From assembly GCA_050015375.1 (NCBI GenBank), contig JBEKBN010000008.1, forward strand, positions 1-40,787: a stretch of 40,787 bases of DNA. The letters run 5' to 3'. The position numbers were made by a program, and so were the translations under genes. Below, piece after piece: positions 4,158-21,190 of this stretch. How positions within the stretch are numbered: position 1 is the first letter of the stretch; each line of letters starts with the position of its first letter. Under the pieces are notes generated by a model. The model searched no databases and was not told where the DNA came from. It saw nothing but the letters and a program-made list of their open reading frames with translations. Source of the stretch: Minisyncoccia bacterium. GTDB lineage: Bacteria > Patescibacteriota > Minisyncoccia > 2-02-FULL-40-12 > IGHO2-01-FULL-4-A.

Positions 4158-5214
4158 GTATATTCTGGGTCATCGAATAGATCGGGGTGATGATCGCCAA
4201 GGCAACCAGGGTCACGACAAGGCCCATGAATAAAAGCATCGCCGGCTCAAGGATGTTCGACATGTTCTGGGTGGATTCGTCGAGTTCGGATTCGTAAAAA
4301 TTGGCCAAAAAAAGCAATGACTCGTCAAGCTTGCCGGTATTTTCGCCGACCACGATCATCTCCGAGAAGATCGGAGGGAAAAGCTTTGAGTCGGTGGTCA
4401 GATATTTTGACAAAGCATCGCCCTGGCGGACGCCTTCCGACATCCTGACTATCTCTCCCTTGTAGACCAGATTGGTCAAAGTGTCGGCCGAGATCTGCAA
4501 GGCCTCGATGATCTTCACGCCGGACCTGAGCAACAACCCGAGCGTCCGGGCGAAGTTGACCATATTGATGTTTTGGGACATCGTCTTGACGAACGGGATC
4601 TTGGTTATCAGCCAATGCCAGTAATATCGGAATTTCTGGACTCTCAGCAAAAGGAAAAAACTGACAAGCAAGATGGCAAGAATAACGCCGATATACACGC
4701 CATAATCAAGAAGGAACTGAGACACGGCCATAAAACCGACGGTCACCACCGGCAGTTTCACATTCAATGATTTCAAAACCGGTAAGATCTTTGGAAAAAC
4801 GAAGAAAGCCAAAATACCGACGATGCCCAAAGTCGCCACCATCAAAATTATCGGATAAGCCATGGCGCTCTTGATCTTTTTATTGAGCTCATCCTTTTTT
4901 TTGAGTTCGTCGGCCAGATATTTAAGATTCTCGCTCAAAGTGCCGCTCGATTCACCGACCCGGATGAGGTTGATGAAAAAATCGCCGAAAACATTTTTGT
5001 AACGCTCCAAGCCCGAAGACAAAAAATGGCCGTTCTTGATGTCAACGATGAGCTGATCGATCATGGCGATGAAGGGTTTTGATTTGGTCTGCCTTTTGAG
5101 GATCTCCAGGCCGTCCAAAACCTGCATTCCGGAACGGACCATGACCTCCAGATTTCTGGCAAAGAACATTTTCTGTTTATTACTCAGTCGGAAGAAGATG
5201 CTATTGAGATTCAT
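4150..5214 (-). CDS. pilC: Type IV pilus inner-membrane platform protein PilC/GspF
   Basis: Two T2SSF repeats (VGESSGTL, VGENTGKLD), AMAYP and LEP motifs, transmembrane segments. Confidence 0.95.
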   Translation of the reverse strand: MNLNSIFFRLSNKQKMFFARNLEVMVRSGMQVLDGLEILKRQTKSKPFIAMIDQLIVDIKNGHFLSSGLERYKNVFGDFFINLIRVGESSGTLSENLKYLADELKKKDELNKKIKSAMAYPIILMVATLGIVGILAFFVFPKILPVLKSLNVKLPVVTVGFMAVSQFLLDYGVYIGVILAILLVSFFLLLRVQKFRYYWHWLITKIPFVKTMSQNINMVNFARTLGLLLRSGVKIIEALQISADTLTNLVYKGEIVRMSEGVRQGDALSKYLTTDSKLFPPIFSEMIVVGENTGKLDESLLFLANFYESELDESTQNMSNILEPAMLLFMGLVVTLVALAIITPIYSMTQNIHG

Positions 5215-5229
5215 GCGAGATTCATAATT

Positions 5230-6942
5230 TTACTCATGGACGACTCTCAGTATTTCCTCAATGGTGGTCATGCCGGCGAGGGCTTTTTTGAAACCATCTT
5301 CGATCAAAGTCACCATGCCGTTTTTGATGGCGATTTTCTTGATCTCACTGGCGTCAGCCCGGCTCATGATCGCTTCGCGGATGAAATCGTTCATCTCCAA
5401 AACCTCGTAAACGCCAACCCGGCCGAAGTACCCCGTATTGCCGCAGGAACCGCAACCCTTGCCGTAAAAAAAGTCGTGATTATTGCCGATCAATTCCGGT
5501 GGCAACAAGTCGGCTAAATTTTTGAATTCGGCCTCGGTTATTTTTTTTTGAGTTTTACAATCAGCGCAAATGGTTCTGACCAAGCGCTGGCCGATGGCAA
5601 CATTAACGGTGGAAGCCACCAAGAACGGCTCAATTCCCATATCTAAAAGCCGCGGCAGGGTCGTGGCGGCGTCGTTGGTGTGAATGGTGGAAAGGAGTTT
5701 GTGGCCGGTCAGAGCGGCGTTGACGGCGATAGAAGCCGTTTCTTCGTCGCGGATCTCGCCGACCATGACCACATTCGGGTCTTGACGTAGAATTGAACGC
5801 AAACCGGCGGCGAAGGTCAAGCCGGTTCGGGTATTGACCTGGATCTGATCAACGCCTTCAAGAGAATATTCAATTGGATCTTCAATGGTGATGATCGAGA
5901 CCTCGCGGGTGCTTAATTCTTTCAAGATCGTGTAAAGCGTGGTCGTTTTGCCCGAACCGGTCGGGCCGGTGGCCAGGATCATGCCGTAAGGTTCTTTGAC
6001 AGCATGGCGGATCTTGATCTTGTCGGCCTCGTTGAGAGCCAGGTCGTCGAGGCGGTTGATCTGGGTTTGCTCGGCAAGGATCCGAAGAACCGCGTTTTCG
6101 CCGTAATATGTCGGAATGATCGAAACCCGGACATCGAACTCGCGGGGCGGGTCGGTCAATTTTGTCTTGAATCTGCCGTCTTGGGCCGCTTGGTGTTCGT
6201 CGGTGCGCATGCCGGTCAGAACTTTGATGCGGGTGATGACGCCCGATTGAATGCTTTTGGGAATAGCGAAAACATCGTGTAAAATTCCGTCAACCCGAAG
6301 ACGTAAAACAACCTTGTCCTCGAGTGGTTCGATGTGAATGTCGGAAGCGCGGGCCAAAAAAGCGTACTCCATCAGCCGGTCAACCAAACTAATGATGGGA
6401 ATTTCATTTTCCGGATTCATCAGTAAACTGTCCAGCTCCCCTTTCAGCTTGTCGGGCACCTCGAATTTTTTGGCTCTAGTTTGGTCGGGTTCGGGCGGCG
6501 AATAACTTGTCGGTTGTTGGCTGGGCATCGCCACCGCCGGCCTATGTTCGGGGATTTTTCCTTCGAGAATTTCTTTTATCTTGTCAACGATCTGGTCGGT
6601 GGTCATAAAGGCCTTGACCACATAATCGTTGGCGCCAAGTTGCAAACTTTTCTGCATGCTTTCCTGGTCGTCGAGATTGAAAAGGGTGATGACCGGCAAG
6701 GTCCCGGCATCGTAGGTCTCTCTGATCTTTCTCAAAACCTCAAAACCGTCAATACTTCCGGAAAGCGGCAGATCCAAAAGCACCAGCGAGGGTTTGATGT
6801 TCTCCAATTTTTCCAATCCTTCACTGCCATCGTAGGCGCTCGAAGCCGAAAAACCCTGATTATTTATCTTCTCGGCCAAAAGCTCGGCCATGAAAGGATT
6901 GTCCTCGATGATGAGTATTCCTTTTTTGGGATTGTCGGGCAT
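5230..6942 (-). CDS. pilB: PilB/GspE secretion ATPase with an N-terminal response-regulator receiver domain
   Basis: REC domain (IIEDN..LLDL..GANDYVVK); ASDIHIEP; Walker A GPTGSGKTT; TIEDPIE; LRQDPNVVMVGEIRD; tetra-Cys zinc motif. Confidence 0.92.
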   Translation of the reverse strand: MPDNPKKGILIIEDNPFMAELLAEKINNQGFSASSAYDGSEGLEKLENIKPSLVLLDLPLSGSIDGFEVLRKIRETYDAGTLPVITLFNLDDQESMQKSLQLGANDYVVKAFMTTDQIVDKIKEILEGKIPEHRPAVAMPSQQPTSYSPPEPDQTRAKKFEVPDKLKGELDSLLMNPENEIPIISLVDRLMEYAFLARASDIHIEPLEDKVVLRLRVDGILHDVFAIPKSIQSGVITRIKVLTGMRTDEHQAAQDGRFKTKLTDPPREFDVRVSIIPTYYGENAVLRILAEQTQINRLDDLALNEADKIKIRHAVKEPYGMILATGPTGSGKTTTLYTILKELSTREVSIITIEDPIEYSLEGVDQIQVNTRTGLTFAAGLRSILRQDPNVVMVGEIRDEETASIAVNAALTGHKLLSTIHTNDAATTLPRLLDMGIEPFLVASTVNVAIGQRLVRTICADCKTQKKITEAEFKNLADLLPPELIGNNHDFFYGKGCGSCGNTGYFGRVGVYEVLEMNDFIREAIMSRADASEIKKIAIKNGMVTLIEDGFKKALAGMTTIEEILRVVHE

Positions 6943-6948
6943 CGGGTT

Positions 6949-7350
6949 CTAAACCTTCGGGTAAATGGTATCCATTATTTGTTTCACGATCTTGTCCAAG
7001 TCGTCGCTTTTCCTGATATGAGCGACGGCGCCGATCTCTTTGGCAAATTTATTGTCAACCCAGGACGCGTCTTCGTCGGCCTCGCCGAAACTGGTCAAAA
7101 AGATAACGGTCATGTCTTTTAATTCGGGGTCAGCTTTCATCCTGACCAAGGTCTCAATTCCCGACATACCCGGCATCTTAACGTCAAGAAGTATCACATG
7201 AGGGCGATAGATTCTGGCTTTATCCATACCCGTCTGGCCGTCGGCCGCCGCGGCGACCTCAAAACCGGAGGCCTCGAGCTTGGCCTTGAATATTTCCCTG
7301 AAATCATTGTCGTCGTCAATTATTAAAATTTTCGGTTTTTCGTCGGGCAT
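6949..7350 (-). CDS. Single-domain response regulator (CheY-like receiver)
   Basis: IIDDD acidic pocket, LLDVKMPGMSG phosphoacceptor, FLTS, conserved Lys; no output domain. Confidence 0.95.
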   Translation of the reverse strand: MPDEKPKILIIDDDNDFREIFKAKLEASGFEVAAAADGQTGMDKARIYRPHVILLDVKMPGMSGIETLVRMKADPELKDMTVIFLTSFGEADEDASWVDNKFAKEIGAVAHIRKSDDLDKIVKQIMDTIYPKV

Positions 7351-7457
7351 GATATTCGTATGTTTATGATGTTAATACGCCAAAATCCGCCGTCCCCTGG
7401 CCTTTTTAATATGATAACATATTTTTGACCCGGAGTTGCCAACACAAACCGCAAGAA

Positions 7458-7486
7458 TTGAAAACAATATGATTTTGGGTTATGCT
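7458..7486 (+). promoter_or_regulatory. Sigma70-type promoter, near-leaderless start of the M16 peptidase
   Basis: TTGAAA-N17-TATGCT, with the ATG 8 nt downstream of the -10. Confidence 0.6.
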
Positions 7487-7494
7487 CTCAAAGT

Positions 7495-8739
7495 ATGGAA
7501 CATAACTTTATAAAAGTTAAAACAAAATCAGGCGTTCCTCTATGGATTTTATCTATGCCGCACTTGGATAGTGTCAATGTTGGTGTGGCGGTTAATGTGG
7601 GCGGGCGAGATGAGATTTGGCCGAAAGAAGCCGGTATTGCTCACGCCTTAGAGCATATGCATTTTCAAGGGACGAAAAGTTTTCCGAACAGCAAAAGTGT
7701 TGCTGAGTTTATTGAAGAAACCGGCGGCAGGATAAACGCAAGAACAAGCACCGAACGAACACTTTATCATGCCCGCGTTCCAGCCAAATATGCCGAGAGA
7801 GCCGTTAAAATAATCAGCGAGCAGATCAAATATCCGTTATTCCCGGAAGAGAAAATTCCCATTGAGATGAAAAATATTGTTCAGGAAATGGGAAGAAGAA
7901 ATGACAATCCCCGGCAATATTTATGGACGATCAGCCAAAAATTCATTTATCATGATCATCCTTTGTCCAAAGATGTTCTTGGCCTGGAAGAGTCCCTGCG
8001 GAATTTCAAAAGGGAGGATTTTATCAATTTCAAAAAAAGATATTATAACCCCTCAAATTACAATTTTGTTGTCATTGGGAATATTGATCCGAAGACAGTA
8101 GCCAGTTTGTTTGATAAATATTTTCCGGAAAAAGTCGGAGAAGAGCCCAATAAAAGGCCAGTGGACATAATAAAAAAAGGCGGAGAAAAAAGAAATGTCG
8201 TGAAGAAAGACATTGAACAAACCCACATTTCCCTAAGCGTTCCTACTGCAGCCGCGCGAAACAAAGAAACATTGTATTTGAGTTTTTTCGCAAGCATTAT
8301 TTCTGGAGGTATGTCGTTTCCGCTTTTCCAAGAGGTGAGGGACAAACTCGGTCTTTGTTATGAAATTGGCGCCGGCACAAATAAGCAAACCGACATCGGG
8401 CGATTTAATATTTATGTCGGTACTGACCACAAGAAATATAAACAAGCCATTGAAGCCATTTTCCAAATTATTGAAAAATACAAAACCGATAAAAAATTAC
8501 TGGAAAAAGTGAAGAATATCAAACTCGGCCGGTTAGCCCTTGATTATGAAGATACTGGCGAAATTTTATTCCAAGCGGCGGATGATATTGTTTATCTAGA
8601 CAGACCACGCGGGTTCGATGAAATAAAGGAAGAAATCCAATCCGTAAAAATCGAAAACATTACCAAGGCCGTGGATAAATATTTGAGAAAAGATCTGTTC
8701 TTCACTACTATCCTGGCTCCGCTCTCTTTTATTGACTGA
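7495..8739 (+). CDS. M16 (pitrilysin/insulinase) family zinc peptidase
   Basis: GIAHALEHMHFQGT inverzincin HxxEH; INARTS; LFQEVRDKLGLCY. Confidence 0.95.
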   Translation: MEHNFIKVKTKSGVPLWILSMPHLDSVNVGVAVNVGGRDEIWPKEAGIAHALEHMHFQGTKSFPNSKSVAEFIEETGGRINARTSTERTLYHARVPAKYAERAVKIISEQIKYPLFPEEKIPIEMKNIVQEMGRRNDNPRQYLWTISQKFIYHDHPLSKDVLGLEESLRNFKREDFINFKKRYYNPSNYNFVVIGNIDPKTVASLFDKYFPEKVGEEPNKRPVDIIKKGGEKRNVVKKDIEQTHISLSVPTAAARNKETLYLSFFASIISGGMSFPLFQEVRDKLGLCYEIGAGTNKQTDIGRFNIYVGTDHKKYKQAIEAIFQIIEKYKTDKKLLEKVKNIKLGRLALDYEDTGEILFQAADDIVYLDRPRGFDEIKEEIQSVKIENITKAVDKYLRKDLFFTTILAPLSFID

Positions 8740-8915
8740 TTAGTACCTCCTATCCCAGAACAACATCTAATCCTTCGGTTATCAATTTACCAGCAGAATG
8801 GCTGTTTTGCGATACTTCTTAGAACTTGAACAGGGATCTTCTATTAAACAATTCGACTTAACTTTTTTTGCTGTTTCTGAATTCAGAAATAAAAAAGGAC
8901 ACAAATTATGTGTCC

Positions 8916-10040
8916 TCAAAGACTTAAAATGGCCCACAGAACTCGCTTATCCATATTTGATAGGCTAGTGAACTCTCCTCGTCTAAGTTTTTTTGAAATT
9001 TTAATAAGTTCTTGTTGGTTACACCCATGCCATATCTCAACTGGCGTGATGGCTTCAACCGGTTTTTTTAATACACCATCCGGTATGATTATTGAATGCT
9101 CAATGAGATACAACAATCTGGACGGTAAAGAAACTTCCTTACTCCTATTTCCGAGAACCAGACCCAAAAAATATCTGATCACATTTGGGCGGTAATCTGA
9201 TAGGATGTTCCCAGTCGAGACGATTTCCTTTCCAGCGAAGTCGATATTTACATACGGCAGAGAAACTATAAACCGAGGTATCTTGATGCCCGCAAGCTGC
9301 GACGCTATAGTCGACAGAACCGCTTGCTTTAAAGTTTTATGTCCGGTACAGACTGTATCTACTGAAAAGCCATTTTTCCATAAAGCAGCCAAATAGAACA
9401 TCCAGCAAAAATCAACATCTAAAATAAAATCTTTGCTGAAACCTCTAGTTTTAAAACCAGCGCCAAATTTGCGACTAATAAGGATGGATTTACCGCGGAA
9501 GAAATTAAATTGTTCGCTAAACTCACATTCGGCATATCGTGGTATTACTTGCGGTAATTTCATATCGATGGGCAAACAAAGCAAAAGAACCTGTTCTGTA
9601 CTATTTTCTGCATGTTCGCTACAGGCCCTACAAGTTATCTTTCCGTTGGTTATCTCATAAATTCTGTCAGATTTCAGAGCGGTAAAATTATCCGGTTCAT
9701 CTAGAACTTCCGTTTTGCCGCAACCGCACCTCCAGATGCCACGAGGCTCTTCTTTAATCCAACCGTCACTTAACCCCTGATATAATACGGAAGAAACGAA
9801 TGTTTTATTTGATTCGTTATCATCCTGCCAAATCTGACCCCTCAATCCTAGAAAATAGGCCGAGGATCCGAACTCTTCAATGGCAATCTGGTCAGCTTTA
9901 CAACCTAGACAGTTTAAAGCCAATATCGTTTCCTGATTACACATTTTGCCCAACAGATCGACCATAAGCGGAATACTGTAATAACCTAGCATAGCATTTT
10001 TCCGTGGCGATAAAGGTAAAGATGTGATTGCGGAACGCAT
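8916..10040 (-). CDS. Degenerate class I aminoacyl-tRNA synthetase-like protein (MetRS-like catalytic core)
   Basis: ITSLPLSPRKNAMLGY at the HIGH position; Cys pairs WRCGCG and CRAC like a zinc knuckle; EIVSTGNI..YRPNVIRYFL at the KMSKS..GNV..YG.D..RYFL position. The signatures are degenerate. Confidence 0.5.
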   Translation of the reverse strand: MRSAITSLPLSPRKNAMLGYYSIPLMVDLLGKMCNQETILALNCLGCKADQIAIEEFGSSAYFLGLRGQIWQDDNESNKTFVSSVLYQGLSDGWIKEEPRGIWRCGCGKTEVLDEPDNFTALKSDRIYEITNGKITCRACSEHAENSTEQVLLLCLPIDMKLPQVIPRYAECEFSEQFNFFRGKSILISRKFGAGFKTRGFSKDFILDVDFCWMFYLAALWKNGFSVDTVCTGHKTLKQAVLSTIASQLAGIKIPRFIVSLPYVNIDFAGKEIVSTGNILSDYRPNVIRYFLGLVLGNRSKEVSLPSRLLYLIEHSIIIPDGVLKKPVEAITPVEIWHGCNQQELIKISKKLRRGEFTSLSNMDKRVLWAILSL

Positions 10041-10089
10041 AATGCCACCCCTTGATAGTGAGTTGTTAATGGACTGAGTTGCCCATATC

Positions 10090-11490
10090 TTAAATCATAT
10101 TCTTGATATCGTCAAGCAGGATACCGTCTATCTTTGAAAAGGAGATGTGGGCACATTTTTCTTTTAAATGATAGAAGGCGCCAACGGATAAGCAGAAATC
10201 CAGCAAAGATTTCGGAGAAACATCCTCGTCTTGCTTACCAGCGAAAATATGGATTTTTTTACCGTTTTTCTTCTCTACATCATTAATGGGATTCATCAAT
10301 TGGCCCGTGGCTAAAAAATGCCAATTTTTGTTTTCAAATCTGTATGCTCCTGTAAATGTTGATTGAAGGAAGTTTCCAAGAGAGCGAACACTGGGAACAC
10401 CCACAAAATCAATTACCGGAGACAAAGCAATAACTTTTTTCACTTCAGACTCGTTAGCCAAAGACAAAGCAACGGCTCCTCCAAAACTAGTTCCAATTAA
10501 AACTATTTGCTCGGTTTTAAAGTCAATTTTGTTTATTTCGATGCCGTTAATTAGAGCTAAGCTCAAACTTTTTATGTCCTTGATCGGAGATTCTTTTAAG
10601 AACTCCCCGCCACTTTCCCAAGTACCCCTATATCGCGGGAAGAAAACGGCATAATCAGTAAACAAAAGTTCGTTCATGAGCTCACGTTGATACGGAATTG
10701 ATGGCAAGCCATCACATAAAACGATTGCTCCCCGTATTTTTCCTTTTGGCAGAAGGTATTCAACAAACATATCATTATATTTCCACCAAAAAGGTTTTTG
10801 GGGTACAAGAGGCCGTTCTTTAGCCAAAGTTAAAACCAAGGAGTATATATTTTCATATATTGGTAAATATTTTGTTATATCATTATCTCTTCCCGTTAAC
10901 ATTAGGTAATCATTATTTGTTAATGTTTCAGGGTGGTGTTTTTTAAATCGATTAATCACGTCATCTTTCGAGTAGACACCATTAAAAAAAAGAACATCCT
11001 GCATTGCAAGAATTATTTTCTTTTTGTGAAAATCATTGCTTTTGTCCTTAGCTCCGACTTGATATCCCAAAAAAAGCTGCCTCGCTCTAAAAACATAATA
11101 TTGAATTTTAGCAACCACATCCCGTCGGACAAAGCGAGCGTTTGGGGCGGATGAGCAAAAAGGATTCACCCCATATAATAAACTTGCATTTTCTAGCACT
11201 TTAGAGATAAAACAGCCGTGGCTATCAAGCGATAATAAGTTAGGATTATCTATCTCATTCTCGTAAACAATCTGCAGGTCAATATAGGCCGCACCACTAA
11301 AAGTATTTTTAATTATCTTTGCGATCGACAAATCAGATAGAATATCCACCTTGTTTTTCAATATCAAGATCACGTCATAATCGTTGAACGTTTCAGTGGT
11401 TATCGAAGAGCCGTATTGCAAAATACCCAGCAGATTACCGCCATATTTGTCACGAGAATAATTTACTAACCGTTCCAATGCCTGATCCAT
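10090..11490 (-). CDS. Fusion of a Pol-beta-type nucleotidyltransferase and an alpha/beta hydrolase
   Basis: N-terminal YGSS..NDYDV and IDLQ; C-terminal PRYRGTWES, GTSFGG nucleophile elbow, GKQDEDV Asp and AH His. Confidence 0.75.
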   Translation of the reverse strand: MDQALERLVNYSRDKYGGNLLGILQYGSSITTETFNDYDVILILKNKVDILSDLSIAKIIKNTFSGAAYIDLQIVYENEIDNPNLLSLDSHGCFISKVLENASLLYGVNPFCSSAPNARFVRRDVVAKIQYYVFRARQLFLGYQVGAKDKSNDFHKKKIILAMQDVLFFNGVYSKDDVINRFKKHHPETLTNNDYLMLTGRDNDITKYLPIYENIYSLVLTLAKERPLVPQKPFWWKYNDMFVEYLLPKGKIRGAIVLCDGLPSIPYQRELMNELLFTDYAVFFPRYRGTWESGGEFLKESPIKDIKSLSLALINGIEINKIDFKTEQIVLIGTSFGGAVALSLANESEVKKVIALSPVIDFVGVPSVRSLGNFLQSTFTGAYRFENKNWHFLATGQLMNPINDVEKKNGKKIHIFAGKQDEDVSPKSLLDFCLSVGAFYHLKEKCAHISFSKIDGILLDDIKNMI

Positions 11491-11551
11491 TGTAGAATCC
11501 TAGACGAACAATAAAAAAGAATCAACTATTTCGAAACAAACAAGTAATTCG

Positions 11552-13180
11552 CTATAAACTTCTGGGCAGTTTGATGCAAAATTTACTGCCTTTGCCGGTG
11601 CCTTCGGATTCGGCCCAGATGTCGCCATGGTTGGCGAGGATGATTTGCTTGGCGATGAAAAGGCCCAGGCCGGTGCCTTCGATTTTGCTGGCGGTGGCCG
11701 AGTCGCGCTGGTATTGCTCGAATAATTTTGGTAATAGTTCGAGGGCGATGCCATGGCCGGTGTCGGTGACGGAAATCAATATTTGGTTGTATTGAAACTC
11801 GCCGATCTCGACTTTTATCCAGCCGGTGTCGGTATACTTGATGGCGTTCTCGACGAGGTTCTGGATTGATTGCCTGACTTTTTGAACATCGACATTGGCC
11901 ATCAGAATTTTCTCCGGTTTGGTGAACTCAAACTGGAGTTTCTTGTTTTCGGCCAGCATCCGGAACTCCCCCACCACATCCGCCACCATGTCGCCGATGT
12001 TGGCTTCCTCAAATTTATATTCCATCACGCCTTCCTCGATCTTCCGCAAGTCCATGATGTTGTTGACCAAGGCGATCATCCGGTCGGCGGAATCCTTAAT
12101 CTTCACCGCCGTGTCTTTAATTTTCTCCGAAACCGGCCCGTATGTGCCGTCGTAAATGAGCGTGGCGTAACCCTTGACCACATTCATCGGCGCCTTGACC
12201 TGATGAGACGCGAACGACAAGAACTGCGATTTCAACTTATCCAAGTCCTTCAATTTTTCATTGGCTTCCTCTAAACTTTTCGTCAGTTTTTCTAATCGTT
12301 CCCTCTGCTCGACTTCTTTCAAAACACTGCGAATAAGAAGAATCCCGAACGAAAGAACCAGCAAAAAGATTCCCGACCTCAAAATTATTGTCGTGATATC
12401 GCTGGATAAGATAACATCAATCAAAGAGACAACTGCCAAAACAAAAGCCAGAATTTCGGTAGTGATAATCTTAACATTGAGAAGGTGGTGTTTAAAAATG
12501 GCATAAGCAGTAAAAACAACGAATGGAAAAGTAAATACTGCACCTAAAGAAATATATCTGGCATCATTAAAAAAGGCCGGCAGAATAAAATTAAAAATAA
12601 TTATTAGAGCAAACATCAAAACAGCGCCCAATGATATATATTTAAGTTGTGTCCTCTCAATTTCTCGACTTTTTGTAAATCTTTTTATGAGAAAAAAGAA
12701 AGAGCCGAGGACCAATCCAACCGCTACCAAACCAAAAATAGCTATACCCGGACCATTCTCAATTTTTAAAATCATTCCACCTGATGAAACCTCAGCGACC
12801 CTTTTAAATACTAGAGGAGTTAAAGTTAAAATGGCAGCAAAAAGAGTAATTGGGAAAAGGACATATTTATACTTTTTATTGAAGGTTGCTTGTTTATTTG
12901 GAAAAACGTAGAAAAACTGAAAAATGAAAAAAGCCTGCCAAACCGCAAGAAAAATAACTAAGCGTTGCAACCAAAAAGCGACCTCGGTCGTTTTGATGTT
13001 ATAAGTGAAATAATTAAATACGCCCCAAATAATACTGATCAGGGAAAAAAATAGGAAAGTTTTGTTTGTAATGCTTTTTCTGTCGTTATAATAAACGATA
13101 AAACCCAAAACAGCTATGCCCGCCGCGGCAATTCCTACAGATAGGAGATCTAGATTAATAAATTCGTTTACCATAATCAC
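11552..13180 (-). CDS. Sensor histidine kinase with a multi-TM (7TM-type) membrane sensor
   Basis: About 9 hydrophobic segments; H-box FASHQVKAP; N-box NLVENAIKY; DTGHGI; GTGLGL. Confidence 0.95.
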   Translation of the reverse strand: MIMVNEFINLDLLSVGIAAAGIAVLGFIVYYNDRKSITNKTFLFFSLISIIWGVFNYFTYNIKTTEVAFWLQRLVIFLAVWQAFFIFQFFYVFPNKQATFNKKYKYVLFPITLFAAILTLTPLVFKRVAEVSSGGMILKIENGPGIAIFGLVAVGLVLGSFFFLIKRFTKSREIERTQLKYISLGAVLMFALIIIFNFILPAFFNDARYISLGAVFTFPFVVFTAYAIFKHHLLNVKIITTEILAFVLAVVSLIDVILSSDITTIILRSGIFLLVLSFGILLIRSVLKEVEQRERLEKLTKSLEEANEKLKDLDKLKSQFLSFASHQVKAPMNVVKGYATLIYDGTYGPVSEKIKDTAVKIKDSADRMIALVNNIMDLRKIEEGVMEYKFEEANIGDMVADVVGEFRMLAENKKLQFEFTKPEKILMANVDVQKVRQSIQNLVENAIKYTDTGWIKVEIGEFQYNQILISVTDTGHGIALELLPKLFEQYQRDSATASKIEGTGLGLFIAKQIILANHGDIWAESEGTGKGSKFCIKLPRSL

Positions 13181-13185
13181 CCCGC

Positions 13186-14262
13186 TTATTTATATAATAC
13201 ATTAGGTGGACGTTTTGACGAATGGGAACTAGGCTGATCCGCATAGCCTATCCTAAAATGTATTGCTATATTTTCAGAATCTACTGAAAATAATTTTCGA
13301 AATTCGTTATAATTTTTGTCTATTATAATTTCATGTTTTTGGCAAAAAGTTCCGGATCCTTCAGTTAAAATACGCTGGGCAGCAAATAATAAAGCCGTAA
13401 CCGGTTGTAAGCTCAATCTATTTTTAGTAGCCGTGAGCCAAACTCGTTGAAAAATACGACCCGCGTTTATGAAATTCTCATCACTGTGCCCATCCATCAA
13501 GATAATCCCCAAAACTGCGCCGGTAGAGTACAGTTTACTGTCTTCGCTAACAATTAATTTTGGCAGACCGAGAACCTTGAAAAATTTCATTAAAGGCCAA
13601 AAACTGGCCAATCGAAAGGCCAATCTTTGAGGGGGACTAAATTCCATAGTTTTCACATAAAGACCTGATTTTTTTAACAGCTCATCCTTTTCAGTCCATA
13701 TGATGTCATGAAATAAAAGATGGTGTAAATGCTCGTCTTCTAAAATAACTTGTTCTATACTTGCAGCGGCTTTACCTATTTGCTTTTTTGAATTATCGTT
13801 GTCTGTTAAACGTATTTCGTATTTGTTACCGAGGTTCATTACGGAAGGAATTGATATAAGTTCGTTGTAAATATCTTTTTCAAGTTTAGAAGAACGATAT
13901 TTTTTTCTATTTGTACATCTTGAAAAAATAAACTCGAAAAGAGAATCTTTCTGTGAAATTGTCTTTTCCAGATTTAGCGATGCGATATGATCAAAAAGAC
14001 CACTTTTGGGAAATAACTTTAATTTTACCGCATAACCATAATTTGAAGATGCAATCAAAATATTTTCAATCAAACAACCATGTGCAATATAGGAACCTCT
14101 TTGGCGATAATTAAGAACGGGATTGTCTTTTTCCGGAAGATTAAATATATCTATTTGATTATTCTCAACCTCAAATCTCCAGGGTTGTGAATTATCTCCT
14201 GATGGCGCAAAAATGCCGGCTTCTATTATTTTAATTATGTCATTATTCACCATTGATACCAA
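13186..14262 (-). CDS. Nitroreductase-family FMN oxidoreductase (Acg/TyzC-like)
   Basis: APSGDNSQPWRF, RCTNRKKY, AGRIFQRVWLTAT, FRIGYA. Confidence 0.88.
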   Translation of the reverse strand: MVSMVNNDIIKIIEAGIFAPSGDNSQPWRFEVENNQIDIFNLPEKDNPVLNYRQRGSYIAHGCLIENILIASSNYGYAVKLKLFPKSGLFDHIASLNLEKTISQKDSLFEFIFSRCTNRKKYRSSKLEKDIYNELISIPSVMNLGNKYEIRLTDNDNSKKQIGKAAASIEQVILEDEHLHHLLFHDIIWTEKDELLKKSGLYVKTMEFSPPQRLAFRLASFWPLMKFFKVLGLPKLIVSEDSKLYSTGAVLGIILMDGHSDENFINAGRIFQRVWLTATKNRLSLQPVTALLFAAQRILTEGSGTFCQKHEIIIDKNYNEFRKLFSVDSENIAIHFRIGYADQPSSHSSKRPPNVLYK

Positions 14263-15406
14263 TTTTTCTTAAAAATTCGCCAGTTCTTTTTTTTCGAAAG
14301 GTGACATTTTTCTTGCTGTGCCAGTCTGATTCCAAAATAGAATCCAAACTAACATCATAAACACCCGATTTAATATTGTTTGTCTTTAAGATTACTTTCC
14401 TGGCCAGATAAGCCAATACTGATCCACAAAGATTAGCTGCGGTACCAAGTTGAGGCCAGGAATATAAAGTTTTCCCGACCTCCATTACAGATTTCTGCAT
14501 GCGAAGGACCGAACGATCAGCACCAACCGTTCTTGCAACAACACTGACCATTTCCCCGTGACCGAGTTTCTTAACCTGTTCAGCGGTCATATTACCCATG
14601 AGACCATTAAATGGTTTTAAATTTTTATCAGTATCGTACCTTTCAATATGAGCAATAACGCCGTCGCCATTATCAGCGGCTGCGATAAGAGGAATCTTGT
14701 ATTTTTTTAAAATTTCTCTTGCCTTGAATTTATAATAGGGGTTATCCATTTCTTCAATAAGAACATCAACCCTGGGCTCACCCAAAATTATTGATTCAAT
14801 ATTTTGTTCAGTAACTCCTTCGGGGTAAATGGATATATTACTATAGGGATTAATTTCATATATTTGTCTTGCCACGGCCCTAACTTTAGAAAGACCAATA
14901 TTCTGAAAACCAACTCGGATCCTATTAGTGTTTGAGCCTGAAATAGTATCTGGATCGGCTAGCCTTAAATTTTTTCCTCCACCCGTAAGGGCAGCTGTTA
15001 TAGCCGCATGGCTACCGACGCTTAAACCCAAAATACCAATAGTTGAGTTGTAAAATATGCCTTGTTCTTCTTTGGTGATCAAATTACAATTTCGACCGGT
15101 GCGAAGTTCTTGATGCATGGCCTCCGGCAAGTAGTGCACGAGTTGGTTATGCCACGGAAAATAAAACCAACTTCCCGAGTCATCGGAATTGCCTTTACCA
15201 AAATGTTCTTGTCGAAATTCGGTTAAATGTTTCTTATAATTATTATCAAAACAGTACCTTGGGTTTTTTATCAAAAAAAGCTCATCAAGCATTTCCAAAT
15301 ATTGGTCAATAATAGCCGTTGGCTTACTTGATTTAATAATTTCTTCAAGTTGTCCCCTTTTTACTAAAACCGGTTTCCAGGAATCCCGGTCAATTATTTC
15401 CTTCAT
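14243..15406 (-). CDS. ThiF/E1-like adenylyltransferase (Rv1355c/TyzB/OxzB-like)
   Basis: RNCNLITKEEQ, GILGLSVG, LADPDTISGSNTNR, INPY, WPQLG. Confidence 0.9.
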   Translation of the reverse strand: MKEIIDRDSWKPVLVKRGQLEEIIKSSKPTAIIDQYLEMLDELFLIKNPRYCFDNNYKKHLTEFRQEHFGKGNSDDSGSWFYFPWHNQLVHYLPEAMHQELRTGRNCNLITKEEQGIFYNSTIGILGLSVGSHAAITAALTGGGKNLRLADPDTISGSNTNRIRVGFQNIGLSKVRAVARQIYEINPYSNISIYPEGVTEQNIESIILGEPRVDVLIEEMDNPYYKFKAREILKKYKIPLIAAADNGDGVIAHIERYDTDKNLKPFNGLMGNMTAEQVKKLGHGEMVSVVARTVGADRSVLRMQKSVMEVGKTLYSWPQLGTAANLCGSVLAYLARKVILKTNNIKSGVYDVSLDSILESDWHSKKNVTFRKKRTGEFLRKIGINGE

Positions 15407-15410
15407 AGAT

Positions 15411-16931
15411 TTATTTCTTTATCCATTTTTGCTTTCCCTTATTACTAAAATACTCTGGGTGTTCATAATCCCAAAAAACAATATGGGGTTTAATTCCAAC
15501 TGGATTTTCCGAATAAGTTTTTCGATATTCTGAATTTTCCGCAATCAAATGCTTTGTTATTTCATGTTCAATTATTTTCTCAAGTTTTTTCGACCCTATC
15601 CTATGAAGTTTAAGCTCAATATTAACTTCAAAAAGTTGATTCGCATTTTGATCACCTTTTACCATCATGGTAAATTTACCGGTTATGTCTTCATGAAATT
15701 TACTTTCAAGCAAAACCCTACGTATGGTTTCGGGATAAATTTGAAACCCATATAAACTTACAGAAAAGTCGCTTCGCTCATAAACATAAACAAAAGGCAA
15801 ACGCCAAATAGTGTCTTCAATTCCCGCTTTTTTTGCCTCTGTTCTAATATCAATTCCAGACTTTTTGATCTTACTCATCATATCTTCGAAACCTATAACC
15901 CCCCCGTTATCTTTTAGGTCATATCGCACAAGAGGAAGCCCAGAAAAAGCTGAACATAACAATTGTCCCCGAACTTCTTCAAAAAAGAACAATTCCGGGT
16001 CGTATTGGCACAGAGTCGGGAGCTTTTTTGTATTTGGGAATATTTGTTTATAAAGAAAACGACTTTGTTTAACCGCAAGCCGTCTGATTAAGATAGCCAA
16101 AGGCGTCTCATATGCGAGCGTGCCCTGATCGACAGTTCCGTAGTGGTTTAATGTGTCTCGGTAGATATTTTTTAATCCGGTTTTTTCAGCAATATAATCT
16201 CGAAATTCCTCGCAAAATCCCTCTGCTGAAAAGATAAATTTCAGGTTATATTTTTTCCAATCGATACCCTGGGCCAATCCTTCATCAATCGCGTCCTTCA
16301 GAAATGGTCCATAGCAACCAATAATAATTTGATCATATTTTTCACCGAATTTTTTCACGGAATTAATTATCTCTTTTTTGTCAACACTAGTGGTAATGAT
16401 ACTCAAAGGATAATTACCCCTCTCAGCAATTATCTTGATGGCTTCATAGGTAAAAAGTCCACCTATCCATATACCCATCGGGAATGCATCAATATAGAGG
16501 GTTGATTTTTTTTGAATATCAAAATTAGTTATAAGATATAATTCTGCCGTACCAGCATATTGAAGATCCTGTACGTTTTCCCGGGGGAAATAAAATGGCT
16601 CACCTGTCGAACCAGAGGTTGCCGATATAACCCACCTTTTCTGTTTAAATTTTCCGTCCCAGCATAGCTCTTCAAGCGGATAATTTCGGAGATAATCAGT
16701 TTTGTCTATTGTAGGAATTTTACGAAAATCATTGAACTTTTTAACACCTTTAGAATTGAAATTTTGTTTATCGAGATAACTTTTATACGCCGGTACCCGC
16801 TTCGCCATTTTGTGGAAAAGTTTGAGAGCCCTCCTTTCTCCGGCTTTGACCCACTTGCTTTCGGGCGCGGTTTTCAGGGTCTTAAGAAGCAAAGCTGGAT
16901 TATCATATTTTTTGGGTAGCAACAAAAACAT
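15411..16931 (-). CDS. Phenylacetate-CoA ligase (PaaK)-like adenylate-forming enzyme
   Basis: RVPAYK, ATSGSTGEP P-loop, HYGTVD, PLVRYDLKD, ERSD, IYPETI. Confidence 0.88.
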   Translation of the reverse strand: MFLLLPKKYDNPALLLKTLKTAPESKWVKAGERRALKLFHKMAKRVPAYKSYLDKQNFNSKGVKKFNDFRKIPTIDKTDYLRNYPLEELCWDGKFKQKRWVISATSGSTGEPFYFPRENVQDLQYAGTAELYLITNFDIQKKSTLYIDAFPMGIWIGGLFTYEAIKIIAERGNYPLSIITTSVDKKEIINSVKKFGEKYDQIIIGCYGPFLKDAIDEGLAQGIDWKKYNLKFIFSAEGFCEEFRDYIAEKTGLKNIYRDTLNHYGTVDQGTLAYETPLAILIRRLAVKQSRFLYKQIFPNTKKLPTLCQYDPELFFFEEVRGQLLCSAFSGLPLVRYDLKDNGGVIGFEDMMSKIKKSGIDIRTEAKKAGIEDTIWRLPFVYVYERSDFSVSLYGFQIYPETIRRVLLESKFHEDITGKFTMMVKGDQNANQLFEVNIELKLHRIGSKKLEKIIEHEITKHLIAENSEYRKTYSENPVGIKPHIVFWDYEHPEYFSNKGKQKWIKK

Positions 16932-16936
16932 AATTT

Positions 16937-18106
16937 TTATTTGAATTGATTAAAAATACTTCTAGCCATTTCATCAGCGACAATATTTGTCGGTTTATTC
17001 TGTCTTTCGCTGGTTTCCAGAATATTTTTCATGTTGTCTTTTATGCAATTCAAACGTTTGTTTATCCTCTGGCTGTCCATGTTGTCATTTTCGTATTCAT
17101 CGGCGACGCTGATAAGTCCGCCGGCATTTATAACATAGTCGGGGGCGTAGATTATTCCTATTTCATGTATTTTCCTTCCAATATCCAAATCAGCAAGTTG
17201 ATTATTCGCGCCACCGGCAATGATCGGTGAACGGATTTTTTTGATAGAGTTGTTGTTTAAGATGAGGCCGATGGCGCAGGGCGAAAAAACATCAACTTTC
17301 TGCTGGTGTATCAGCGAGGGACTAACCATTTTGACTTTCGGGTAAGATGCTTTTAAGGTCTTGATTTTTTCGGGGTAAATATCAGCGGCATATATGGTTT
17401 TAGCGAAAGGATACAGCGCTTTTATCAAAGCCGTGCCTATTTTCCCGACTCCCTGAACGGCGAAACTCCGTCCCGAGATGTCGCCTTTACCGAATGCTTT
17501 TTTCAGGCACTCATTTATTCCCAGCAATAATCCTTTGGCCGTGTATTCTGTCGGGTTGACCTTATTTCCAACGAAATACGGGCTGTATTCGCTCATAATC
17601 CTGACATCCTCTTGTTGTAGGCCGACATCCGTTCCCGTGACAAAACGGCCATTCAGGCAATTTATTTTCTCGGCGTATTTCTTAAGAATTTGGGGACGTT
17701 TGGCGTCAAAGCCGTTTTTTACGGCCGGACAAACAATGACTCCCTTCGCCCCGCCGTATTTCAAGTCGGCAAGAGCCGACTTGAAGGACATAAGCCGGGA
17801 TAATCTCAATGAATCCTCCAGCGCTTCGCGGCCATCCTCGTAATGCCACAATCTGGTCGCGCCAAAAGCCGGATTGAAATATCCCCCGCGATGGATGCTT
17901 ATGTAAGCATCGAGTCCAGTTTTCGAATCGGTCACGTTGGCGGCGAGATTATGGTCGTCAAATTCCGAAAATTTGCTTAACAATTCGGAATCCAGAACAT
18001 GAAACCCGTTTTTTTGAAAAAGCAGATCTTTATATTGCAAGCCAAAATGGCCATTCTTGATAGTTTGGCTTGGGGGAGTGATTTTAATCCCACTTATTTC
18101 GTCCAT
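16937..18106 (-). CDS. Glu/Leu/Phe/Val dehydrogenase (leucine/phenylalanine dehydrogenase-like)
   Basis: PAFGATR, MSFKSALA, GGAKGVI, TGTDVG, VQGVGKIG Rossmann motif, GGANNQL, YAPDYVINAGG. Confidence 0.93.
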   Translation of the reverse strand: MDEISGIKITPPSQTIKNGHFGLQYKDLLFQKNGFHVLDSELLSKFSEFDDHNLAANVTDSKTGLDAYISIHRGGYFNPAFGATRLWHYEDGREALEDSLRLSRLMSFKSALADLKYGGAKGVIVCPAVKNGFDAKRPQILKKYAEKINCLNGRFVTGTDVGLQQEDVRIMSEYSPYFVGNKVNPTEYTAKGLLLGINECLKKAFGKGDISGRSFAVQGVGKIGTALIKALYPFAKTIYAADIYPEKIKTLKASYPKVKMVSPSLIHQQKVDVFSPCAIGLILNNNSIKKIRSPIIAGGANNQLADLDIGRKIHEIGIIYAPDYVINAGGLISVADEYENDNMDSQRINKRLNCIKDNMKNILETSERQNKPTNIVADEMARSIFNQFK

Positions 18107-18202
18107 AATATCGCGCCGAGCATCCTAACGGATAAGGGGCCGAGATTCTATATTTTGAGGAACCAAATCATCGGACTGACAGGAGGAAATTATGAATATT
18201 GG

Positions 18203-18326
18203 TTAAGAAAACAAAAAAACGCTTCTATACTTTGATCAAGTTTTATCCCGATCCCTAGATCATTCCTTACAGTATGTGTATGAAATAAGTTAAGAAGCCG
18301 CAGCTATAACTGAAATATAACAACCT
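18203..18326 (-). promoter_or_regulatory. Conserved 5' leader, copy A (upstream of the dehydrogenase operon)
   Basis: Aligns with 21065-21183; the identical 20-mer AAGTTAAGAAGCCGCAGCTA is at 18287-18306. Confidence 0.75.
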
Positions 18327-18332
18327 GAATCA

Positions 18333-18362
18333 ATTATATCACATTTTTAAGTTAGATTACAA
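18333..18362 (-). promoter_or_regulatory. Sigma70 promoter with extended -10 for the dehydrogenase-to-kinase operon
   Basis: On the minus strand, TTGTAA-N18-TATAAT with TGnTATAAT. Confidence 0.7.
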
Positions 18363-18412
18363 ACGGTCGGCGGATATAGGAAAACGGCAGTTAAAACTAA
18401 AAATGATTAGTT

Positions 18413-18442: not shown

Positions 18443-18446
18443 AAAA

Positions 18447-21183: not shown

Positions 21184-21190
21184 GTGACAA

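Follow-up and report, generated by a model that had tools for sequence, protein, structure and literature searches.

The window analysed here, the whole stretch of 40,787 nucleotides from a Minisyncoccia bacterium, carries on its minus strand a run of five genes, which encode a dehydrogenase of the Leu/Phe/Trp type, a ligase of PaaK fold, a ThiF-like cyclase, a flavin oxidase of the Acg type and a 7TM histidine kinase. In the ORF list they are separated by gaps of 5 and 4 nt, then by an overlap of 20 nt and a last gap of 5 nt. An earlier sequence-only reading had claimed five tightly coupled genes with these domains, and the ORFs, domain matches and spacings bear this out. That reading passed over the three genes between the kinase and the CheY-like gene (an NTase-like/hydrolase fusion, a MetRS-like gene and an opposite-strand M16 peptidase), the bracket of hairpins and promoter-like site, and the low GC across the 8-18 kb stretch of the window. 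The features are as follows, with the basis of each assignment in brackets.

18333-18362, minus strand: promoter-like site preceding the dehydrogenase gene, TTGTAA, 18 nt, TG-TATAAT (pattern match alone)
18283-18327, minus strand: 45-nt leader element (sequence repeat search of the 835-kb genome)
16937-18106, minus strand: Leu/Phe/Trp-type amino-acid dehydrogenase, extended at the N-terminus by about 40 residues (ELFV_dehydrog match, structures)
15411-16931, minus strand: PaaK-fold adenylate-forming ligase of a CPR-wide family (family models, AF2 model, alignment)
14243-15406, minus strand: ThiF-like cyclodehydratase corresponding to the N-terminal half of TrzS/OxzB (Pfam, NF005901, alignment)
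13186-14262, minus strand: Acg-type flavin-dependent oxidase of the nitroreductase superfamily, corresponding to the C-terminal half of TrzS/OxzB (NF005901, Acg models)
12311-13180, minus strand: residues 1-290 of the histidine kinase, its 7TM sensor half, GC3 0.33 (domain match, composition)
11552-12310, minus strand: linker, HisKA and HATPase_c half of the kinase, residues 291-542, GC3 0.70 (domain match, composition)
10090-11490, minus strand: fusion of an NTase-like N-terminus and an alpha/beta hydrolase, accessory and found in this genome only (domain search, neighbourhood comparison)
8916-10040, minus strand: MetRS-like paralogue of a class I aminoacyl-tRNA-synthetase catalytic core without anticodon domain, accessory (structural match)
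8895-8917, minus strand: terminator-like hairpin closing the seven-gene unit (pattern match alone)
7495-8739, plus strand: M16 peptidase (domain match)
6949-7350, minus strand: single-domain CheY-like receiver (Pfam)
5230-6942, minus strand: REC-PilB, an assembly ATPase with a receiver as its N-terminal domain (Pfam)
4150-5214, minus strand: PilC platform protein (domain match)
1720-4157, minus strand: two pilin-like genes with the N-terminal methylation motif (weak N_methyl matches, E 5e-4 and 1e-3)

The promoter-like site, read from 18362 to 18333, agrees with its pattern at 10 of 12 positions and has an extended -10, and a second terminator-like hairpin lies at the dehydrogenase end of the unit (18442-18419); both were recognised by pattern match alone. 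These pattern matches delimit a predicted unit of seven genes, from the dehydrogenase through the MetRS-like gene, bracketed by hairpins and a promoter-like site, and CheY and REC-PilB are therefore assigned to a separate unit in this window; by the same kind of match, the ABC/PlsC pair upstream is assigned to another. There are no intergenic gaps inside the seven-gene unit in the ORF list, and its 340-nt leader holds no minus-strand ORF of at least 20 aa. Within the genome, the leader element recurs just once, at 21140-21184 in front of the PlsC-ABC unit, with 82% identity and a 20-nt exact core between the two; the ABC/PlsC genes are not kept as neighbours in the comparison loci. The NTase-like/alpha-beta-hydrolase fusion had no relative among 95 comparison loci. 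The MetRS-like protein, which had no family match in domain and family model searches, resembles MetRS clusters in structure (TM 0.74-0.75), and the M16 peptidase breaks the kinase-CheY adjacency that relatives show.

The closest solved structures to the dehydrogenase are leucine dehydrogenases (E 4.9e-66). The ligase had no Pfam match and matched the NCBIfam PaaK models weakly (E 1.5e-10), its 40.2 bits against TIGR02155 (cut-off 646.3) missing the equivalog-level score that implies phenylacetate-CoA ligase function; the FlxY model was also matched weakly (E 3.7e-6). Its AF2 model (pLDDT 89.4) matches PaaK1, 2y27 (E 4e-24, TM 0.80 by target), and, as in the ANL fold, the P-loop residues S106, G107 and G110 and the C-terminal K500 do not vary among the 89 sequences compared. 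To our knowledge, amide formation has been demonstrated for no ligase of this family; this, and a resemblance to PaaK that is confined to the fold, count against the reading proposed below.

The ThiF-like protein matches Pfam ThiF (E 1.9e-18) and covers positions 26-341 of NF005901 (254.6 bits), the 722-position Rv1355c/TrzS model with a whole-protein cut-off of 476 bits, while the oxidase covers positions 376-714 (144.7 bits); singly and summed, these scores lie below the cut-off for a protein that is split here. The oxidase scores 131 bits against the Acg family model NF047509 (cut-off 199) and matches the Acg structure 2ymv in the PDB (E 6e-9). In ThiF, the positions of the G-x-x-x-G, D, N-x-N-R, K and D motifs were set by alignment to TcdA, its closest solved structure, and G127, G131, D153, N159, N161, R162, K174 and D221 are invariant in all 83 sequences, as are six residues of the oxidase in 65 of 65; every catalytic motif checked in the enzymes is invariant family-wide. 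TcdA is described as an oxazolone-forming dehydratase (PMC12596934), and TrzS as an O2-requiring enzyme whose products are N-acyl tryptazolones (PMC12856293). On sequence grounds, the ThiF/oxidase pair belongs with the oxazolone synthetases. ThiF-oxidase fusions occur in seven CPR loci and an oxidase-hydrolase fusion in one, which ties the parts together. In about 11 of 80 CPR ligase loci, where ligase, ThiF and kinase are contiguous, no oxidase was found, which excludes a desaturated oxazolone as the product of every locus. The sequencing runs that hold the window's DNA carry peat metagenome labels, and the O2 need of TrzS, set beside that origin, was counted as a point against.

The module is widely conserved. 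ThiF, ligase and 7TM sensor (E <= 7e-34) were found in the same nine of 61 relatives and were adjacent in each. CPR-wide, ThiF was found in 77 of the 80 ligase loci and a 7TM kinase in 73, or in 61 of the 62 loci with at least 5 kb of sequence downstream; in an even sample of the phylum, 30 of 32 genomes with the ligase had a co-oriented 7TM-kinase match within about 6 kb downstream, by a count made by eye. The order of the genes varies (ligase-ThiF-oxidase, ThiF-ligase-oxidase and oxidase-ThiF-ligase) and linkage is retained throughout. Judged from these counts, the gene linkage is far beyond chance. No exporter is conserved among the neighbours of the module. Within the taxonomic order, ligase, ThiF and 7TM kinase also recur with CheY, REC-PilB and PilC, contiguously in seven of eight relatives, with the run from cassette to pilus genes split at contig ends in the eighth, whereas REC-PilB was adjacent in none of 80 loci from other CPR lineages. 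The sequence-only reading had named a lack of conserved linkage in other genomes as refuting it, and it passes this test: the association recurs CPR-wide for ligase, ThiF and 7TM kinase, and its extension to the pilus motor holds for this order but fails as a general trait. The ligase is present in 33 of 301 sampled Patescibacteria genomes (about 11%); 7TM-kinase family matches occur in 110 of the 301, of which 78 lack the ligase. The same reading had regarded such a pathway as unexpected in a reduced CPR-type genome, but it is not peculiar to a single genome of that kind, because about one in nine sampled Patescibacteria genomes has the ligase. It is very probable that the enzymes and the kinase form one functional unit.

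The slot of the first enzyme is variable. It is filled by the dehydrogenase (40 of the 80 CPR ligase loci), by class I/II aminotransferases (29 neighbour ORFs of these loci), by a class IV aminotransferase (IlvE, in one relative) or by an FlxA-like tyrosine ammonia-lyase, which occurs in this order, adjoins the ligase in four relatives and scores 606 bits against a cut-off of 700. Whatever its family, the first enzyme always acts on the amino group of an amino acid. No N-acyltransferase of the OxzA/TyzA/TrzA type was detected in the seven-gene unit by Pfam and family models, and the 25 Pfam families met most often in the 145 neighbour ORFs of the 80 loci include none. The PlsC-like gene at 20292-21017 was considered for this role and rejected, as its family is a different one, its unit is separate and its presence is not conserved. 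The proposal that the ligase and a deaminating enzyme (in the earlier reading, the dehydrogenase) take the place of the N-acyltransferase fits both the swaps of the first enzyme and the lack of a recurring N-acyltransferase family. An amino acid that has lost its amino group thus appears to serve as acyl donor.

The kinase gene (11552-13180) encodes HisKA_7TM, HisKA and HATPase_c domains (Pfam) and keeps the phospho-accepting His of the H-box; Pfam detects no GAF domain in it, a domain that many kinases of the family carry. In composition the gene is chimeric: the sensor half is like the enzymes and the catalytic half like the pilus genes. A contiguous low-GC3 block extends from the ligase through the sensor (0.27-0.33, within the lowest 5% of 485 ORFs), and the kinase core (0.70) stands beside CheY, PilB and PilC (0.63-0.67). 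Contigs from two runs span the break without difference, a break of the same kind is present in the relative G006, and the relative G042 retains the kinase core alone. The window's enzymes are closest to those of other CPR lineages (67/53/46% identity) and its sensor is not. In the tree, this sensor is sister to sensors of ammonia-lyase-type loci (support 89, not starred), although its own cassette is of the dehydrogenase type, which indicates that sensor phylogeny does not track cassette type.

With regard to the output, REC-PilB has a Response_reg domain at residues 9-122 and a T2SSE domain at 179-566 (399.8 bits) with the Walker A motif GPTGSGKTT, and PilC and the pilin-like genes follow downstream, as befits a PilB-type ATPase. 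The acceptor Asp is in place in CheY (D56) and REC-PilB (D57), along with the T and K positions, and neither protein has a DNA-binding domain, in agreement with the sequence-only reading. Receivers tied to the module in CPR loci are single-domain proteins (31 of 66 upstream, 9 of 59 downstream), and given these associated receivers the predicted output of the module is not transcriptional. The genome has two kinases and four receivers in total. The other kinase, on contig 4, overlaps its own OmpR-type regulator, which leaves the kinase described here for three receivers without DNA-binding domains, all of them at pilus loci. By adjacency in relatives and elimination within the genome, this kinase probably feeds CheY and REC-PilB. 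Six of 15 REC-PilB genomes have no 7TM kinase alongside. The three genes and the terminator-like site that separate kinase from CheY in the window were counted against the pilus link.

We propose that this is a CPR module by which a cell would produce its own ligand for a membrane kinase. The dehydrogenase would strip the amino group from Leu/Phe-type amino acids to give a 2-oxo acid; elsewhere an aminotransferase would perform the deamination, or a tyrosine/phenylalanine ammonia-lyase would give a cinnamate-type acid. The ligase would adenylate the acid and couple it with an amino acid's amine, with no separate N-acyltransferase involved; cyclisation of the resulting N-acyl amino acid by ThiF would yield a 5(4H)-oxazolone, which the oxidase would desaturate. 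The hydrophobic product may then enter the membrane of the producer or of its neighbours and be read there by the 7TM domain, upon which the kinase would phosphorylate the CheY-like protein and the PilB-fused receiver and so gate the assembly of a third type IV pilus system post-translationally. We give even chances to a product of the oxazolone type, and sensing of the product by the kinase seems equally poised between yes and no. The whole chain, from self-made ligand through this kinase to the pilus receivers, is about evenly balanced. That the product is a true cell-to-cell (quorum) signal is doubtful.

It is possible, but rather unlikely, that the kinase senses host contact, membrane state or an external metabolite and that the enzymes make a co-expressed effector, antimicrobial or envelope lipid; the oxazolone-type product would then accompany the kinase or be an output, and would not be its input. 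The known Mycobacterium oxazolones, as described in PMC10404671 and PMC12856293, are lipids that stay with the cell and for which no receptor is known, 78 of the 301 sampled genomes have the kinase and no ligase, and the sensor phylogeny ignores cassette type. However, co-expression alone does not readily account for the near-universal translational coupling of enzymes and kinase (61 of 62) or for the low-GC3 block that enzymes and sensor share, and the kinase has no evident control over enzyme expression because the linked receivers lack a DNA-binding domain. The catabolic character of the dehydrogenase, the aminotransferases and the ammonia-lyase, and the action of PaaK relatives in aryl-acid catabolism, could instead point to salvage, in which host-derived amino or aryl acids are catabolised or converted and the kinase reports their availability, the cue being a nutrient or host signal instead of a self-made one. 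This is improbable, since no catabolic role is known for a ThiF-type cyclase or an Acg-type oxidase, the ligase reaches 40 bits against the PaaK cut-off of 646, and no further catabolic genes recur nearby.

In photoactive yellow protein, 4-coumarate is loaded by a tyrosine ammonia-lyase and a ligase. A reactive azlactone or acyl-adenylate might similarly become attached by a covalent bond either to the kinase, which it would serve as cofactor or chromophore, or to a different protein: the FlxA-like lyase adjoins the ligase in some relatives, the family's kinases often carry GAF, loci without the oxidase would end at a reactive saturated oxazolone, and alpha/beta hydrolases, which are possible acyl-transfer catalysts, recur and in one case are fused to the oxidase. 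We hold this to be distinctly improbable, as the window's kinase lacks GAF and a varying class of acyl donor suits a fixed chromophore poorly. Finally, most of the characterised ThiF-like enzymes of secondary metabolism act on peptides, as far as the account in PMC12596934 extends, so that ThiF and the oxidase could modify a ribosomal peptide (RiPP) in the manner of MccB, PaaA or azole-forming systems. The empty leader and gapless unit leave no place for a precursor gene of at least 20 aa, for both proteins the fit to the TrzS model, which is one of small-molecule enzymes, is far better than that to ThiF/MoeB models, and the neighbours that recur are amino-acid-deaminating enzymes and not peptidases or precursors, which makes a peptide substrate extremely improbable.

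The module shares with OxzAB of Pseudoalteromonas rubra, TyzACB, and TrzAS of Mycobacterium tuberculosis a ThiF-like ATP-dependent cyclase and an Acg-type flavin oxidase, paired or fused. It differs from them in having a PaaK-fold ligase and a deaminating enzyme instead of an N-acyltransferase, in an acyl group that is probably a 2-oxo or cinnamoyl-type acid and not a fatty acyl-CoA, in the coupling to a sensor kinase and in the lack of the oxidase at some loci. CqsA/CqsS of Vibrio, LqsA/LqsS/LqsR of Legionella and AgrBDCA are autoinducer synthase-sensor kinase systems, and the Lqs regulator has no classical DNA-binding output. As in these, the synthase gene adjoins a polytopic membrane kinase without a large external domain, and the ligand, hydrophobic and self-made, would presumably be read inside the membrane; the enzyme families and chemistry are unrelated, and the output here, judged from the genes, would be a CheY-like and a PilB-fused receiver. 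The four relatives that pair an FlxA-like lyase with a PaaK-like ligase recall FlxA/FlxY of flexirubin biosynthesis, but polyketide machinery is absent, all scores lie below family cut-offs and the window uses a dehydrogenase and not a lyase. Receiver domains also act post-translationally on PilB/PilT in PilG/PilH (Pil-Chp) and the PATAN-REC proteins of Synechocystis, and DrdR of Xanthomonas is reportedly a CheY-like regulator for the motor of type IV pili. In contrast to such regulators, the window's receiver replaces the MshEN-type N-terminal domain within the PilB polypeptide itself, and the presumed kinase is a 7TM two-component kinase and not CheA.

We know of no receptor for bacterial oxazolones. 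Their discoverers could only suggest a signal role (bioRxiv 10.1101/2020.06.11.147165, as far as this account extends), and an oxazolone-type cassette joined to a sensor kinase provides a ligand-receptor hypothesis with four enzymes and a single kinase as its parts. The internal break of the kinase gene offers a natural case of a sensor-domain swap, in which the transmitter stays with its receivers. At its furthest, the module could make an amino-acid-derived, azlactone-type CPR autoinducer that is read by a modular 7TM kinase, whose sensor half is exchanged by recombination together with the synthase genes, giving agr-like specificity groups; in this order the signal would time, post-translationally, the use of an extra type IV pilus by an episymbiont. 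We regard this as unlikely. CPR bacteria are held to be minimal in biosynthesis and regulation and to depend on pili for host attachment. If the proposed chain is true, a self-made small molecule that gates the pilus motor through a PilB-fused receiver would be a new regulatory principle in CPR bacteria, and if the autoinducer reading is true as well, bacterial oxazolones would gain their first receptor and their first physiological role, and the CPR a first self-encoded system of chemical communication.

In this analysis, we show that the enzyme cassette and its 7TM kinase constitute a module that is widespread in the CPR, and that the putative pilus output of this module is limited to the order to which the window belongs. 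The window is an entire contig of an 835-kb genome (G000) with a completeness of 98.9%, and the genes concerned are the following:

16937-18106, minus strand: Leu/Phe/Trp-type dehydrogenase (ORF and domain/family matches)
15411-16931, minus strand: ligase of 506 aa (no Pfam match; weak PaaK equivalog match)
14243-15406, minus strand: ThiF-like protein (domain/family matches)
13186-14262, minus strand: nitroreductase-superfamily protein, the oxidase (domain/family matches)
11552-13180, minus strand: kinase with HisKA_7TM, HisKA and HATPase_c (domain matches)
6949-7350, minus strand: CheY, a single-domain receiver (domain match; acceptor Asp kept)
5230-6942, minus strand: REC-PilB, a pilus assembly ATPase with an N-terminal receiver (domain match; receiver acceptor Asp kept)

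The sequence-only reading had described the first five as tightly coupled genes, and this is confirmed, the spacings from dehydrogenase to kinase being 5 nt, 4 nt, a 20-nt overlap and 5 nt. It had also proposed linkage to the 7TM kinase, REC and PilB across genomes as a check, and this linkage does recur within the order. Among 61 genomes of the order, the window's genome counted, ThiF, the ligase and the 7TM part of the kinase (E <= 7e-34) occur in exactly the same nine, with weak 7TM matches in two further genomes. Seven of the eight relatives have the cassette, kinase, CheY and REC-PilB co-oriented on a single contig, together with PilC wherever the fetched stretch extends that far; in the eighth, the cassette contig ends within the kinase gene. 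The kinase directly abuts CheY in five of these seven, and small opposite-strand ORFs stand between them in the other two, as in the window. The order of the cassette genes varies among the order relatives. An aromatic ammonia-lyase replaces the dehydrogenase in four of them (one has FlxA, the tyrosine ammonia-lyase of flexirubin synthesis, as its nearest match, at 606 bits), and an IlvE-type aminotransferase is found in one other. Ligases of the lyase-type loci are 29-34% identical to the window ligase, and those of the four remaining own-order loci 42-51%.

A scan with one genome per species gave 413 loci with a ligase relative, and the best 80 were fetched. By the titles of its members, the ligase family belongs to the CPR/Patescibacteria; most of the best 80 are titled Paceibacteria, Saccharimonadales, Doudna-, Magasanik-, Roizman-, Gottesman-, Woese- and other CPR groups, and 12 are titled Gammaproteobacteria or Polyangiaceae, yet their gene content is the same. 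With profiles built from the window and its relatives, these best 80 of 413 loci contained ThiF in 77 cases, the 7TM kinase in 73 (61 of the 62 in which at least 5 kb follows the ligase), a separate oxidase in 59, an oxidase fused to ThiF in 6 more, and the dehydrogenase in 40. Scanning of 145 unlabelled neighbor ORFs returned 29 class I/II aminotransferases and 10 alpha/beta hydrolases, and no N-acyltransferase family was among their 25 commonest families, which fits the earlier view that no such enzyme is recognizable in the operon and that the ligase and the dehydrogenase stand in its place. Because of the locus counts, the neighbor families and the first enzymes of the order relatives, the invariant core is ligase, ThiF and 7TM kinase; the oxidase is usual, and the amino-acid-deaminating enzyme is variable. 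Of 301 genomes drawn evenly from the phylum, 33 had the ligase, and 30 of the 32 others besides the window's genome had a co-oriented 7TM-kinase match (adjacency counted by eye) within about 6 kb downstream. One of the two exceptions, an 87%-complete genome, had no match and the other had its match on another contig. Matches to the 7TM family (E <= 1e-5) occurred in 110 of the 301 genomes, so that 78 carry a kinase of this kind but no ligase. Taken together, the counts from the order, the 80 loci and the 301 genomes rule out chance adjacency.

With regard to the enzymes, a Pfam scan of the ligase gave no match and the PaaK equivalog model scored it at 40 bits only. Its AlphaFold model (from 40 sequences, pLDDT 89.4) was superposed by PaaK1 (2y27) in a structure search with E 4e-24 and TM 0.80, and also matched other PaaK-family AMP-ligases, among them 6six and ClxA, two enzymes taken to form amides or esters in benzoxazole pathways. 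The NCBIfam model of Rv1355c (TrzS of Mycobacterium tuberculosis) matched ThiF at 254.6 bits over positions 26-341 and the nitroreductase at 144.7 bits over positions 376-714, both scores lying under the curated cut-off of this model. TrzS converts N-acyl tryptophan to a tryptazolone using ATP and O2 (PMC12856293), and TcdA, the closest solved structure to ThiF, likewise closes an oxazolone ring (PMC12596934). The eight expected catalytic positions of ThiF are invariant in 83 of 83 family sequences, the P-loop and C-terminal Lys500 of the ligase in 89 of 89, and the six expected positions of the oxidase in 65 of 65. The closest counterparts of the ligase, ThiF and oxidase are found in other CPR lineages (67, 53 and 46% identity, respectively), not within the order. 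A RiPP reading was also considered, and the search for a precursor peptide found none.

The earlier claim that the receivers do not bind DNA holds, CheY and REC-PilB having no output domain besides the ATPase. PilC and pilin-like genes follow REC-PilB in the same unit. Genome-wide, G000 has four receiver domains and three HATPase_c matches, one of which is GyrB with an intein (Intein_splicing lies between the DNA_gyraseB and Toprim domains of gyrB, 3087-5999 of the contig 9 locus L109). The second kinase of the genome overlaps an OmpR-type regulator on contig 4. Since GyrB and this OmpR-paired kinase account for the other HATPase_c matches, the 7TM kinase would by elimination be left as the one evident partner of three receivers: CheY, REC-PilB and a further CheY-like protein. 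The latter is encoded on contig 5, about 0.8 kb upstream of a second pilus locus (L107, 3183-11391) with PilM, a PilB carrying an MshEN domain, PilT and PilC; therefore all three DNA-binding-less receivers of G000 are located at pilus loci. As a gene linkage, the proposed tie to the pilus holds in the order, with REC-PilB co-oriented as described, but not beyond it: REC-PilB is adjacent in none of the best 80 of 413 loci and an ordinary PilB-PilC pair in one. Of those loci, 31 of 66 have a single-domain receiver (120-181 aa) in divergent orientation upstream, and 9 of 59 have one downstream of the kinase. PilB fused to a receiver occurs in 15 of 61 order genomes, comprising all nine with the cassette and six without a 7TM kinase beside it, and further PilB-type ATPase matches without a receiver occur in all 61, two in most. 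One of the six (G042) retains just a kinase core, which aligns with residues 278-539 of the window kinase. This 347-aa protein (L020, 4945-5988) adjoins REC-PilB, with no sensor and no cassette, and its cut falls at the same junction as the break in base composition of the window kinase.

That kinase gene is a mosaic. Its catalytic half has a GC3 of 0.70, comparable to the pilus genes and CheY (0.60-0.67), and its sensor half has 0.33, comparable to the oxidase, ThiF and ligase (0.27-0.33); the mean of 485 long ORFs genome-wide is 0.507 (5th and 95th percentiles, 0.34 and 0.625). Taken in 40-codon blocks, GC3 is 0.23-0.47 up to about codons 280-320, shortly before the H-box, and 0.65-0.80 from there on. 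Identity of the catalytic half is 49-60% with seven own-order kinases and at most 48.6%, mostly 35-40%, with 66 other-lineage kinases. For the sensor half, it is 36-51% with own-order kinases and about 50% with some distant ones whose cores reach only 36-39%. In trees of the window and 30 of the 73 kinases, the core falls inside a 99-supported set containing all own-order rows, and the sensors of the order are divided by a split with support 98 and intermingle with those of other lineages. Own-order ammonia-lyase-type loci are sister to the window sensor (support 89), and a distant donor for the sensor is accordingly not supported. It is composition, not phylogeny alone, that ties the window sensor to the window enzymes.

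Low GC3 as a general trait of 7TM domains was rejected, since the halves are equal in six of the seven relatives, where the break is absent, and the membrane protein PilC has 0.67. The exception is G006 (L010, 14357-16966), which has the same break, with oxidase 0.31 and sensor 0.26 versus core 0.56. Its locus has about 4 kb with a phosphodiesterase and a TrmB-like regulator between the oxidase and ligase-ThiF. Assembly chimerism was likewise rejected as the cause, because contigs of two runs cross the break without difference: one of 23,031 bases in run X1 spans 5738-19000 and one of 6,747 bases in run X2 spans 12020-18766, each with 0 differences to the window. The runs are of different years, and both are possibly MAG sources, hence independent only as samples and assemblies. 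In run X2, from peat, contig depth drops at the kinase 3' end (window ~11,550), with 20-26 giving way to about 10, and the deeper contigs diverge by 0.7-3% from the window. This suggests a sibling strain in which, at >=95% likeness, the pilus side is shared and the kinase and cassette are not; it seems to carry something else where these stand.

The following features concern the transcription units:

18442-18419, minus strand: terminator-like hairpin 3' of the upstream ABC gene (pattern match)
18362-18333, minus strand: promoter-like site with extended -10, ahead of the dehydrogenase (pattern match)
10090-11490, minus strand: NTase-like/alpha-beta-hydrolase fusion, 466 aa (N-terminal G-S...D-x-D nucleotidyltransferase-like pattern by eye; weak C-terminal Pfam matches below cut-off)
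8916-10040, minus strand: MetRS-like catalytic-core paralogue, 374 aa, last gene of the unit (Atlas: class I MetRS-like cores, TM 0.74-0.75)
8917-8895, minus strand: second terminator-like hairpin, 3' of gene 8916-10040 (pattern match)

Judging from the two hairpins and the promoter-like site, they seem to bracket a unit of seven genes, namely the five cassette and kinase genes, the NTase-hydrolase fusion and the MetRS-like gene. The latter lacks the anticodon-binding domain, as do its MetRS-like Atlas neighbors, and its protein had no match in Pfam or NCBIfam. Since neither of the two additional genes has relatives in 95 comparison loci, they are accessories of G000. Other cassette loci repeatedly contain alpha/beta hydrolases that are unrelated to the one in this fusion protein, in one case fused to the oxidase (L040). 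A plus-strand M16 peptidase comes after the seven-gene unit, followed by CheY/REC-PilB as a separate unit. The ABC and PlsC genes were rejected as pathway members, their neighborhood not being conserved and their sole tie being a 45-nt leader element. This direct repeat (18283-18327 and 21140-21184; 82% identity, 20-nt exact core) has its sole two copies in the 835-kb genome directly downstream of promoter-like sites, one in the leader of the dehydrogenase-to-kinase unit and the other in that of the PlsC-ABC exporter unit. It may serve both as a common operator or leader, and if so the two units would be co-regulated in G000. An Rfam scan of the window found no family at gathering score, and no RNA run containing window DNA was among those listed. 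The 721-aa protein at 22190-24355 (minus strand) has weak lipase/PGAP1-like and beta-propeller matches, all below cut-offs.

The logic of this synthase-kinase module is similar to that of CqsA/CqsS, Lqs and Agr, and HisKA_7TM is reportedly named in domain-census papers. The likeness to OxzB, TyzBC and TrzS is an enzyme pair of the same working; those systems, however, have an N-acyltransferase partner, which the window system is without. The portions of the oxazolone literature searched give no receptor or role for these compounds, and nothing CPR-encoded was among the literature matches listed. No description of the module was found in the literature searched; the supplementary sequence networks (Fig. 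S1) of PMC12856293 and PMC10404671 may already include CPR ThiF nodes with ligase neighbors.

Several observations stand against a path from oxazolone to pilus: the oxidase is missing in about 11 loci, an exporter is not conserved among the cassette loci compared, sensor clades and cassette type do not go together, REC-PilB occurs without the kinase in six genomes, and three genes interrupt kinase and CheY in the window. As read from the gene content, the conserved catalytic residues and the conserved linkage, the system most likely works from a deaminated acid through an oxazolone and the 7TM kinase to the pilus receivers. The dehydrogenase, or elsewhere the aminotransferase or lyase, would make a 2-oxo or cinnamate-type acid, which the ligase would adenylate and use to N-acylate an amino acid; the deaminated acid as ligase substrate is favored by the variable first enzyme together with a ligase subfamily that shifts with it. 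ThiF would then cyclize the N-acyl amino acid to an oxazolone and the oxidase would desaturate it, giving a membrane-soluble product for the 7TM domain to read. That DNA-binding regulators are absent speaks against a kinase whose sole task is to control expression of the enzymes; CheY and REC-PilB would receive the phosphate, gating pilus assembly.
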